In this document: one piece after another, positions 9,266-45,636 of the stretch
Layout of the letters: the number at the start of each line of letters is the position of its first letter
How positions within the stretch are numbered: position 1 is the first letter of the stretch
Position numbers and translations under genes: made by a program
Source of the DNA: a bacterium
GTDB lineage: Bacteria; UBA8248
Length of the DNA: 64,000 nt
Direction: 5' to 3'
NCBI GenBank assembly: GCA_965213685.1
Contig: CBDBZY010000064.1
Coordinates: 1,536,001 to 1,600,000 of the forward strand
The notes under the pieces: model-generated
What the model was told of the DNA's origin: nothing
The model's input: only the letters and a program-made list of their open reading frames with translations
Database searches by the model: none

Positions 9266-10861
9266 TCACATACTCAACTCTCCCTCAAGCTGTCCAGCCA
9301 GCACATTCTTGTCATGGTCCCTTAGCAATTCTATCAGCTTTCTCCAAGTGGCAGGCTGTTCTCCATTACCTGCCATCCAATACTTCACCATAGCTAGGCA
9401 ACATTTTTGAGGATTTTGTGTCCCATTTTCATATTCAATCAAATCCAGTTGGGCTCCATCAGTGTCAAAATCAAACAAAATTCCAAATTGTTTCCAATGA
9501 GAAGCGAGAGACTTGATAACCTCAATCTTCCCACCTGTCTTAGTCCTCATTATGGACAACTGCTTTAGAGTTGGTTTGGAGTCTGAAAGAAGCATAGAAA
9601 TGTAGCAACGTACTTAGTATGTGGCACAGGTCCACTCCATTACAAATTTCTTACCTAATGGATCTTCGACAGCAGGTTGGTTATTTTTCAATTCAGGCAT
9701 AGCTGTAGTTAAAATATGCATAATTATGTATATCAGGATGGTTCACAACATAAATTCATGTACATGTAGCTGTATAGGATCATTGCTACGTATAGTTTAC
9801 TAGTTTCAAAGGTAATGAACTTTGTGTAGCAGAAAACGTAGACCTTCCAGCTGAAGTGAGATAAAGATGCCCACTGGATTGCCAGTCTCTGGGCCCAGGT
9901 TCAGTGCTACGGATGGAAGTGTGTCTTTCCAGTTTTTCTTTGTCTAGATTTGCATATTGGTACATGCAGGTGCACTGCAGCTCTCATGAGTCACAGTCCT
10001 GACAAATATCAGTTTGCACTCCACCACATTCAGACGTGGTGCACTCCTCAATACATCACATGAAACCCAGTGTACTGCAGTGTGTGCTCTATAGGAGGGT
10101 CTAGTCTCGCAATGACATGTCAACAAGGCAGCCATTTGGCATTACATTTGGCAGCCATTACTGAGTAGGCTTTGTCCGTCCTCCCCCTTGTCATACCTAC
10201 CCCTTCACCCCCCACACTACATTACCCCCCCTCCTCCTCCCCTCCCCTCTTCACCTCATGCTGTTCTTTTGCTCAGGTACATAATAAAGACACCTCTCTC
10301 TGAGGAAGGTCTACAGACCAAAATGTCCTGTTTCTATTAAGTTTTCTGCTATGCAAAGTTCATTAACTTTGGAACTAGTATACATACATGTACTTACAAG
10401 TAGTGTGATCCCCTTTTTCCTCTTCAATATACTTCATAAGCTCTCCATTGTACACAGGTTTTTTGGTCACTGTGAAAGTATTCAGTCTATGTATACATGT
10501 ATATGGCCATCTACAAGCCTTCTGATCATCACATATTATGTAACTTACATAAGTCCTGGATCAATTTCTTTACCAGATCAATGTCAGTTGTGCATTCAGC
10601 CATAATATCCACAAACTTTTCAAACCATTTCTCCCCTGTGTCATTATTGACTTTGATCGTAACACAGTTCAACAGGCTACTTGCCTTGCTTGCAAATGAC
10701 ACTCCTGTGGTGTCAGTGATACTTCTCCTCTGGTGTGATGTTATAAAGGCTTCTTGTTCCAAGTGCAGAGCAATCACTTGCAAATTGAATTCAACAGCTA
10801 GAGCCAGGTTTGTCAAATTTACCCTTAGTGCATACATTTCTGCCCGTTCTCCAGATGCCAT
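9266..10861 (-). CDS. Death-fold adaptor gene C: CARD-like (alpha) + linkers + Death domain (K type); RAIDD/CRADD-like architecture
   Basis: Exons 10861-10549 (MASGERAEMYALRVNL...WFEKFVDIM...), 10469-10398, 9702-9655 and 9582-9266 (KPTLKQL...HWKQFGILFDFD...WMAGNG...ATWRKLIELL). All introns are GT-AG phase 1 and the frame is open to TGA. Confidence 0.8.
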
Positions 10862-10974
10862 GTCACCTATACATGTGGTAAGACACATGTATATAGCATG
10901 CATAGACCTATTGGCTTAACCTTAGTTTTTGACAGTAGTGAGTTGCTTTTGGCTTTCAACTTATACTTGACACC

Positions 10975-11165
10975 AGAAGAGAGAGGAGCGAGAGAGAGGA
11001 GGGGGGATGAGAGAGAGAGATATGGGGGATATGGGGGGGGGGGGAGGTGGGGGGAGGGAGAGAGAGAGAGAGAGGGAGGGGGAGAGAGAGAGAGAGAGAG
11101 AGAGAGAGAGAGAGAGAGAGAGAGAGAGAGAGAGAGAGAGAGAGAGAGAGAGAGGAGAGAGAGAA
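10975..11165. repeat. (GA)n microsatellite
   Basis: Long GA dinucleotide run with a G-rich lead-in. Confidence 0.95.
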
Positions 11166-43457: not shown

Positions 43458-43625
43458 CTTCACCGTCCAAACACAACAACGGTCATAGGGGGTGTGGCCT
43501 CAGGACTTCCGGCATACTTTAGCGGCAGAGAGTTTAGCTTTGCGTACGCAGCACTGTACAGTGGATCTAGCATCACTTGTATGAAAATAACAAAAGCTGT
43601 AATAAAGTAATAAGCAATTGAATAC

Positions 43626-45636
43626 CTAATCACTCAACACTTCTACAGTCACTCCATATTTCTTTGCAATCGTATCTGCAAGTTTTTCTTCCCCAATTGT
43701 GTTCAGTGCAGTGGCCACCTCCTGCCAGGAGGGACTCACAGTTTGCCTCAGGTATTGCTGGAACATCAGTCTCATCTGCTTCCGGACATCACCACGATTG
43801 TCCTTTTCAATTACATTCAGATCATACTCTTTGATGTTCAGTTGAAGACCTAAACCAAAAAAGTTGGTGGTTTGTACCACACTAAGAAGTTCCTTTAGTG
43901 TGGGTTCAGTCTGTTGCTCTTGCACTGCAATGTCCATGTGTATGTGTACAATAAAAGAAGTAGAACTGATCAAGCATTAACAAACACTGCTAGATGTATA
44001 CACTACAGCTATTCTGAAGGAAATTTGGTCTATACTGATCACAGTGATCTTGGAAGTTCTCACTCCAATGAAATACATTCCCACCAACACTTGGTGTAAA
44101 CAAAAAGATGTCCTAAAATGTAGAAGGATGTATAGGAATGGCAGTGCAAAAAACCACAGAAACTATAAGGTGCATAGGGATGACAGTATGCACAAAGATT
44201 ATCCCATCTCTACATCTTTTTATGGCATACTCCTAGAGACTATGCTACAAAACTACTGGAAAAACAGCATTGTACAGTGAAAAAGAAAGATGTAGGGGTG
44301 GGGTTACTTGTGTAGTCTTTGTATGCTGTCTTGCCTGCATGATGTTATCCCCACATCGAGTTTCTGTGGGTTTTGCACTGCCAACCGTATATCCTTATAC
44401 ATTTTTGGAAAAGTTTGTTATACTTGTTCGTGTGCTTTTTTTGTACAGCACTACACTAAAGGCTGATGTTATTCTTGCAAGCTACTTTCAGACACAAATC
44501 AGCCCCCACAGCAGACTTTGCTGCATATCACGCACATGGAACAATGGGGCTTGGGCACCCCAACTTTAGAGCTGAGAGTCTGAGACCTGGAGCTACCTCA
44601 CTTGCTGTATATGACTACCTAACTCATACATGTACAATGGCAAGCAAGATGCTGCCCATACACACTCCTTTCAGGCACAAGGAATATGCAGCTGCAGTAG
44701 CCTTTGTCACAAGTGAAGAACTAGTAGGCATGGCTTCACTATCAGCATCATATTGGGCCATGAAGTGCCACACTAAACATATCCTGACACCTTCCTTCTA
44801 CTTGGTACACCTCAAGTTAAATGTACATGCATACCTGCATCATCAGATTTCACTTTGGCTTCTCCTCCATTCCCAGTCCACCTGCCACCAGCGTCAACAT
44901 AGGCAACTGAAAAAAAGGTTAATATAGCCTGTTGAATTCCTTCATTTTGACACTTGACACTGTTCCAAGCTAGCAAAACTCCGTATTCACTATGGATGAT
45001 TCATTTGAGTTTCGCTAATGATCCATTTCTGAAAGCATTGTGCTAAATTTAGTTACATCAGAGACCAGATCACACTCCTAGCAGACTACGTGTTTAGGCT
45101 GAAGATTGTATAGAAATGCAACTCACTCTATAACAAACTTAAGCCCTGCACTAGCAGGCAGCTTATCTGCCTTGGCTGACAAATGCAAGGCATTCACACA
45201 AAACTCAACACAAACACTGAATGTCTATCCCAGGTCTAGTCTCGTGAGGCATACTCATTTGACTCATAGTCATCAGTCTTACTGTTGAGCGACAAGCACA
45301 GATTTCTGATTCAATACATGTCGACAGCCAGCTTTCAATCATTAACCTACCTTTAAGCTCTCTTCCGAGCCAAGAGTACGTTTCACTCTCTAGCAAAATG
45401 CCGGCCAAATCTTGAAAGACACCTTCTCTTCCATTCCCCATCACCTCACGCAGCACTCTTCGTAAACGCTCAGCCCTTGAGTGATACGGATTCGCAGCAT
45501 AATCCTGCGTGTCCTCACCAATGATATACTGTGTCAGTAGTTGGTCTGCTAACCATCCTGGATCTACTTGGGAGCGTGTGAACCGAGAAAACAGTTTAGT
45601 TAAGGCGTCGTGACCGGCCCTATCGGTCCTGTCCAT
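43626..45636 (-). CDS. Death-fold adaptor gene F: CARD-like (beta) + linker + Death domain (T type)
   Basis: Exons 45636-45351 (MDRTDRAGHDALTKLF...; 286 nt as in gene E), 44906-44835 (VAYVDAGGRWTGN) and 43924-43626 (EPTLKELL...FFGLGLQLNI...PSWQEVATALNTIGEEKLADTIAKKY). All introns are phase 1. One more linker exon near 44660-44773 is possible. Confidence 0.78.

Follow-up and report, generated by a model that had tools for sequence, protein, structure and literature searches.

Six death-fold genes, here called A to F, lie in the 64,000-nucleotide (nt) stretch of DNA analyzed here (contig CBDBZY010000064.1, positions 1,536,001 to 1,600,000; hereafter the window), and our subject is how their domain modules and short linker exons came to be combined. 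All six genes are on the minus strand, in the order F-E-D-A-B-C from position 45636 to 9266. The paralogous minus-strand exon set, located at about 9.2–45.7 kb, was first spotted by all-against-all blastp of the window's 1,330 stop-to-stop open reading frames (ORFs). Gene models were made by reading the sequence, followed by a script check of splice sites and frames. Six complete reading frames were rebuilt, with 30 coding exons and 24 introns; every intron (24/24) is GT-AG and of phase 1, and every internal exon (18/18) has a length divisible by three. Because all 24 introns are phase 1, any join between blocks of exons (cassettes) keeps the reading frame. The proteins have 218 (F), 228 (E), 367 (D), 382 (A), 249 (B) and 249 (C) residues. 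Four module profiles run against the 1,330 ORFs found no further death-fold exons in the window. The window is animal-like in its short GT-AG introns, its transposon fragments and its GC content of 38–53%; the DNA is probably that of an animal, probably a sponge.

Gene architecture and module identity

Genes B, C, E and F consist of a CARD-like module followed by a death domain (DD). In each, exon 1 carries the start codon and the CARD-like module, termed Y in B (13591–13906), Y' in C (10549–10861), Z in E (43172–43457) and Z' in F (45351–45636); all exon coordinates refer to the minus strand. A first linker micro-exon comes next: 57 nt in B (13475–13531), 72 nt in C (10398–10469), 66 nt with an AAG acceptor in E (42947–43012), and 72 nt with phase 1-1 borders in F (44835–44906). 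B, C and E then have a last linker micro-exon, of 66 nt in B (13279–13344, ending ...FERISR), 48 nt in C (9655–9702, ending ...VEDPL) and 27 nt in E (41322–41348, ending ...ELSR before a GTAAGT donor). A single exon for the C-terminal DD closes each gene, at 12845–13155 (B), 9266–9582 (C), 40783–41090 (E) and 43626–43924 (F, which has no separate last linker). In all four genes an AG a few bases upstream of the start codon may mark an intron in the 5' untranslated region.

Genes A and D have three DDs. Their additional death-fold exons, X1 and X2 in A (16842–17102 and 16152–16457) and X1' and X2' in D (39386–39646 and 28776–29090), are separated by a 57-nt micro-exon (16624–16680 in A, 39256–39312 in D), and X1' has the same length as X1, 261 nt. 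X1 is preceded by a short exon 2 (66 nt at 17922–17987 in A; 72 nt at 40236–40307 in D) and by a first coding exon of only four bases, ATG and one more (18074–18077 in A, 40387–40390 in D); in A, both of these come from the gene model. A GTAAGT donor directly follows this first exon in A (18077–18072) and in D (40390–40385), so that D begins with ATGT/GTAAGT just as A does. On the 3' side, D has a single 75-nt linker micro-exon (28636–28710, ending ...AVHPL) before its C-terminal DD (26863–27182). A has a putative first linker of 72 nt (16024–16095, with an AAG acceptor and a GTGAGG donor), which is the weakest exon call of the set, and a 72-nt last linker (15884–15955, ending ...FEKVPR) before the DD (15467–15777).

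What the preliminary description of this DNA called gene D is only the 3' part of the full gene. D spans 13.5 kb (40390–26863) because its fourth intron, which separates the 57-nt micro-exon from X2', is 10,165 nt long (39255–29091). Plus-strand ORFs within this intron (32175–35224) have a weak RVT_1 match (E 5e-4) and phage-integrase SAM-like matches, which suggests that the intron holds an inserted, putative tyrosine-recombinase retroelement.

The C-terminal exon of all six genes is a death domain, in A, B, C and D by homology to E. Against the Pfam Death (PF00531) gathering cut-off of 22.6 bits, the exons of E (23.7 bits) and F (24.0 bits) pass, those of D (20.4 bits) and B (15.2 bits) fall below, and A and C have no hit. 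The C-terminal exons of A, B and E align at 40–57% identity. These three form class P; C and D form class K; and F, with no paralogue in the window, is a third type, T. A profile of class P matches C at 9e-11 and D at 3.7e-7, and hhalign relates P to K with a probability of 93%.

The Y and Z modules are CARD-like as a lead only. Both are helical in AlphaFold models (pLDDT 75.1 for Y and 63.6 for Z, the latter with six predicted helices in the E copy). Against Pfam CARD (PF00619 and PF16739), Y of gene B alone gave a match, a weak one to CARD_2 (E 0.063; 13.7 bits where the cut-off is 28.2 bits), and the nearest ESM Atlas clusters of Y and of Z (queried with the E copy) are CARD-annotated and mostly from Porifera, with a score of 0.92. 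Foldseek against the Protein Data Bank (PDB) gave no match at E ≤ 0.001 for either module; the hits for Y at E 1–6 included many CARDs, and those for Z gave no clear match. Against PDB sequences, profiles of Y and Z returned chance-level hits only, and similarity between Y and Z themselves is undetectable (hhalign probability 1.5%).

Relationships of the front and back halves

The front and back halves of these genes pair with different partners. By their front modules the genes form the pairs A/D, B/C and E/F; by their C-terminal DDs, A pairs with B (with E more distant) and C with D, and F stands alone. Counted over exons only, amino acid identity in the front halves is 66% for X1 and 52% for X2 (A/D), 50% for Y (B/C; 47–50% over exon 1) and 62% for Z (E/F), with blastp E-values of 1e-26 to 1e-43; at the nt level X1 is 76% identical. 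In the back halves it is 57% for P (A/B), 55% for K (C/D) and 36–40% for E against A and B, and identity between P and K is only 26–30% in amino acids and 42–44% in nt. A tree of 156 DDs, made up of 150 external domain instances found with the P profile and the six window domains, likewise joins A and B as sisters (support 0.76) and C and D as sisters (0.76), and groups E with A and B in a clade of 22 tips (0.68).

The combinations present are thus X-P (A), X-K (D), Y-P (B), Y-K (C), Z-P (E) and Z-T (F). On these sequence relationships the six genes are mosaics, and their combinations require recombination between genes. Exon shuffling is recognized by module borders of the same phase, by conflicting relationships among modules and by a junction identifiable in intron DNA; the first of these is found at all 24 introns, and the second in fronts that group as B/C, A/D and E/F against backs that group as A/B(/E) and C/D. 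The preliminary description had the exchange happening repeatedly, which is more than these data show: two events account for all six combinations if one is reciprocal, and three if none is.

Synonymous divergence (dS) is high throughout: 1.7 for Y with its first linker (B/C), 1.4 for P (A/B), 1.5 for K (C/D), 1.8 for the micro-exon with X2 (A/D), and 2.5 for Z with its first linker (E/F). The bootstrap ranges are wide and overlapping, so the splits among A to D are inseparable in time.

Relatives outside the window are numerous. The P profile matches 1,858 proteins at E ≤ 1e-3, of which 889 also pass E ≤ 1e-10; the best 150 of the 1,858 are mostly short single-ORF predictions, and Ephydatia muelleri KAL5505335.1 is a named sponge protein among the matches listed. 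One relative, P0057, is a 461-residue protein on a 1,494-nt contig and looks transcript-derived. It has the architecture of gene A: X1 (58% identity), the micro-exon, X2 (46–48%), a 38-residue linker and a DD that groups with those of A and B in a clade of 10 tips (support 0.84). The eight residues before its DD score 20 against the tail of the A last linker, a score reached by two of 5,583 background 8-mers (defined below). P0057 supports the view that the last-linker tail travels with the A/B clade of DDs and that X-P is an older arrangement; it also carries an internal duplication, which may be an artefact of assembly. Searches of proteins for longer relatives of the B P-type DD, of the K-type alignment and of the Y alignment gave none, which is weak evidence; no full-length K-type or Y-type protein from outside the window emerged from them.

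Tails of the form E-R/K-L/I/V-P/S-R/S recur before the DDs of external proteins that differ in other respects, among them P0145 and P0112. Judged by eye, many external genome-derived ORFs read through an apparent pyrimidine tract and AG immediately ahead of the conserved xxPTLxxL start of the DD. This visual comparison suggests that a phase-1 intron before the DD exon is conserved across the DD family.

Linker micro-exons and the position of the proposed exchange

The preliminary description had quoted eight linker peptides, and all eight (8/8) lie on the minus strand at or inside the coordinates given for them. Each of their micro-exons is bounded by an AG acceptor and a GT donor, is open in frame and is a multiple of three nt long. 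Similarity among linkers was measured in three ways: by local alignment against 2,000 shuffles for 91 exon pairs; by comparing, without gaps and anchored at the donor, the eight final residues of 15 pairs; and against a background made up of the 5,583 open 8-mers of the window, both strands included, that end at a phase-1 GT.

The first linker follows the N-terminal module, as had been proposed. The B and C first linkers match with z 8.8 (p ≤ 0.0005, rank 2 of 91) and those of E and F with z 4.1 (p 0.0035, rank 4 of 91), and a 5'-anchored version of the test ranks these two pairs first and second of 15 (p ≤ 0.005 for E/F). The other top pairs among the 91 are the A/D micro-exons between X1 and X2 (z 10.2) and the A/D second exons (z 4.6). 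The putative first linker of A was also tried as the 5' counterpart of the single D linker and was rejected; it ranks third of 15, but with p 0.15–0.28.

The last linker tends to follow the C-terminal DD. The A and B last linkers are alike (donor-anchored p 0.0012) and are each other's single best match among the 5,583 8-mers; in the local test they are weaker (z 2.7, p 0.018, rank 7 of 91). In the anchored test the top four of the 15 pairs all join linkers that precede DDs of the same class, namely A-B (0.0012), A-E (0.0036), B-E (0.012) and C-D (0.018), and the next best pair has p 0.08. The ranking is similar with 6 or 10 residues; with 14, a match between A and the D linker that is rich in S/T/P (p 0.03) intrudes. 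The E last linker, which the preliminary description did not cite, is only modestly similar, 25 (against A) and 21 (against B) of the 5,583 background 8-mers scoring as well, and its 2,081-nt interval has only one other strong phase 1-1 candidate. For C and D, 14 of the 5,583 score as well, with D the best of 330 strong-donor sites, and the pair is outside the top 25 of 91 in the local test. Of the four linker similarities originally described, three are therefore clearly above chance, while that between C and D is modest: present when anchored, marginal overall.

A narrower reading of these tails is that only the single DD exon was shuffled, with the break in the intron just upstream, and that last-linker likeness reflects chance, composition or convergence of functional tails. 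The weak C/D result and the nine-residue length of the E last linker fit it; so do the similar tails before the DDs of P0145 and P0112, which are compatible with functional constraint, and the read-through seen by eye in external ORFs, which suggests that the DD exon by itself is a conserved unit. It has to contend with the mutual best match of A and B among all 5,583 8-mers, with the first four of 15 ranks falling to same-class pairs, and with P0057, which keeps an A-type tail beside a DD of the A/B clade. We regard this reading as unlikely.

Some or all of the linker micro-exons might instead not be real, in which case the N-terminal module would splice straight to the DD and mapping a breakpoint by linkers would be meaningless. 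Skipping an exon preserves the frame when all introns are phase 1, the micro-exons in the window genes are predicted from sequence, the first linkers of A, E and F fail a simple splice-strength filter, and protein searches for longer relatives of single exons gave none. Yet the B/C and E/F first linkers are conserved as protein between flanking introns that cannot be aligned; the last-linker exons of the models are almost the sole strong phase 1-1 candidates in their intervals by the same filter; and the transcript-like P0057 includes both the X1–X2 micro-exon and a linker of 38 residues with an A-type tail. Taken together, these make it quite improbable that the linkers are unreal.

Reading from 5' to 3', the best partner switches between the first and the last linker in B (from C to A), in C (from B to D) and in E (from F to A/B). 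The units are therefore two-exon cassettes, one of N-terminal module plus first linker and one of last linker plus DD, and the junction lies in intron 2 of B (130 nt), of C (695 nt) and of E (1,598 nt). The scheme of swappable 5' and 3' cassettes with a boundary between the linkers holds in this form for B, C and E; A, D and F do not fit it fully, as D has a single linker exon and F no last linker. For A and D, the boundary can be placed no more precisely than between the X2 exon and the final eight or so codons ahead of the DD exon. Nor do the data tie the exchange to one intron, as first described: from one N-module class to another, the introns share no homology.

Intron 2 of E contains a foldback of about 1 kb (41479–41949 and 42022–42498), with inverted arms of 176 nt (91% complementarity) and 297 nt (79%). 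It looks like a foldback or an insertion resembling a miniature inverted-repeat transposable element, and such an insertion would explain the length of the intron.

The A/D front is also unevenly diverged. Exon 2 with X1 (17987–16842 against 40307–39386) has dS 0.66 (bootstrap 0.43–1.18), and the micro-exon with X2 has 1.78 (0.96 to saturated). This hints at later gene conversion or at a further exchange boundary, located between X1 and X2; the latter argues against exchange in one intron only. Gene conversion between adjacent paralogues, that is, homology-driven overwriting of 3' halves, could also be proposed for the mosaics as a whole, and a later conversion tract would give just such a dS contrast in A/D. 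It would, however, have had too little homology to work with (26–30% in amino acids and 42–44% in nt between P and K, and X, Y and Z fronts that cannot be aligned), and conversion can homogenize one class without creating new combinations of classes. As the source of the mosaics it is very unlikely.

The preliminary description had proposed comparing identity among the paralogues with introns included. Done by blastn, this comparison returned exon matches only, and no switch of partner could be read in the introns. A 56-nt similarity between C and D that extends into the intron was set aside, as it is not in the top 12 of 276 intron-end pairs used as a background control. The junction in the introns has probably been erased by age; with neutral DNA saturated (dS ≥ 1.4), a test of the RDP or GARD type is uninformative here.

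Assembly of the cluster

We consider it likely, though short of certain, that this is a tandem, same-orientation cluster of six death-fold adaptor genes built by cassette (multi-exon) shuffling in an animal genome, probably that of a sponge. Each gene would consist of a 5' cassette and a 3' cassette joined at a phase-1 intron. The 5' cassette would be the N-terminal death-fold module plus the short first-linker exon where there is one, in class X (DD-DD; A and D), Y (CARD-like; B and C) or Z (CARD-like; E and F); the 3' cassette would be the short last-linker exon where present plus the one-exon C-terminal DD. As to mechanism, we infer that the joins arose by illegitimate recombination at the DNA level or by segmental duplication, with breakpoints in introns, while the array was expanding, and that they are old (dS about 1.4 or more). 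In one version, a single tandem duplication running from the intron after the first linker of an A-like gene (X-P) to the matching intron of a C-like gene (Y-K) would yield X-P, Y-P and Y-K, which reproduces the observed order of A, B and C and makes B the junction chimera. As to function, the proteins would be adaptors that work through homotypic interactions, and an exchange of halves would rewire the coupling between DD partners and CARD or DD partners.

Several points weigh against cassette shuffling as set out here. Only B, C and E show the complete two-linker layout. The likeness of the C and D last linkers is marginal and does not pass the unanchored test, the E last linker has only nine residues, and the first linker of A has weak splice signals and no counterpart in D. 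No junction is identifiable in intron DNA: sensitive blastn (word size 7) found no intron homology among the paralogues. The tandem-duplication version is drawn from gene order alone (one of six possible orders) and leaves E, F and D unexplained, and the A-B and B-C intergenic regions, which it predicts to match, do not. The CARD assignment is a lead only, as the Pfam match (E 0.063) is below the cut-off and Foldseek gave no match at E ≤ 0.001. The genes themselves are known here from sequence, and skipping of micro-exons would also keep the phase-1 frame.

The same uniform phase makes another use of the cassettes conceivable, at the RNA level. Stop-to-start spacing is only 168 nt between F and E (43625–43458) and 392 nt between E and D (40782–40391), both head to tail on the minus strand, and a scan of 600 nt 3' of each stop codon found no AATAAA or ATTAAA for F, E, D, B or C; gene A alone has one, at +180. 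Because all introns are phase 1, gaps are short and five of the six genes lack the motif, read-through transcripts might splice an upstream 5' cassette to a downstream last linker and DD in frame. We give this very little weight; if true, it would provide more adaptor combinations than genes, loosely like clustered variable-exon loci.

Other features of the window are of mixed kinds. Between D and A, on the opposite strand, lies a Kelch-repeat ORF (20676–21401, plus strand; KLHDC2/KLHL20/DRC7 Kelch domain, E 2.5e-21), and a tandem repeat at 22670–23267 has a period of 91 nt, 6.6 copies and 97% matches, with related inverted copies near 24300–24850. A dispersed repeat family of about 125 nt or more, with 86% identity between copies, is found at 20663–20786, 46312–46436 and 46488–46610 and also at 36264–36535, 47565–47816, 57181–57721 and 61027–61183; its copies include an inverted pair just upstream of gene F. 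Outside the cluster, features located at 49526–52206 (minus), 53101–53931 (plus), 58463–59437 (minus) and 55318–56100 comprise a reverse-transcriptase ORF (RVT_1, E 5.8e-13) with long CT/TC microsatellites on either side, an ORF with a guanylate-binding-protein N-terminal domain (E 6.5e-25), and a subtilase S8 ORF (E 1.6e-38), of which a diverged and incomplete second copy lies about 3 kb away.

Comparison with known systems

Contacts between like domains allow death-fold adaptors to wire the complexes of innate immunity and cell death, and in early-branching animals such adaptors number in the hundreds. The present cluster is a compact, fully resolved example of how this adaptor diversity can arise, with two-exon cassettes, uniform intron phase and the products of a 2x2 swap side by side. 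It could serve as a teaching case, and its natural chimeras can be used to test which half of an adaptor sets partner specificity.

Adaptors of the CRADD/RAIDD type have an N-terminal CARD and a C-terminal DD. B, C, E and F share this two-domain order and have a similar size (218–249 residues), a comparison of architecture that claims no orthology. Y and Z differ in having no significant sequence match to solved structures, and their CARD assignment stays at the level of a lead.

Phase-symmetric (1-1) exons are a signature of shuffling in multidomain genes of animals (Patthy's rule). The cluster resembles this type of exon shuffling in its discrete, phase-1-bounded domain exons, in the varied combinations of its modules and in its short, likely disordered linker exons. 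It differs in that the classical modules are extracellular (EGF, Ig, kringle) whereas those here are intracellular death-fold modules, in that the exchanged unit seems to be a two-exon cassette of domain and linker, and in that all four 2x2 products (X-P, X-K, Y-P and Y-K) are kept in one cluster.

A parallel in family size comes from the lineage-specific expansion of death-fold genes in a sponge and in amphioxus. The relevant passages of PMC3879445 put the number of such genes at about 460 in Amphimedon queenslandica and at 541 in Branchiostoma, describe many combinations of domains, and invoke domain shuffling for the N-termini of NLR proteins. The likeness to those accounts extends to a large and diverse family, to sponge members and to adaptor-like DD-DD and CARD-DD architectures. 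The difference is that those passages deal in domain combinations and phylogenetic discordance rather than in breakpoints at the exon level or linker micro-exons, of which the cluster offers a resolved local example. Among open-access papers and preprints we found none that maps a death-fold shuffling boundary by means of linker micro-exons. The cluster is an unusually tidy case of a known kind of exon shuffling and introduces no new mechanism.

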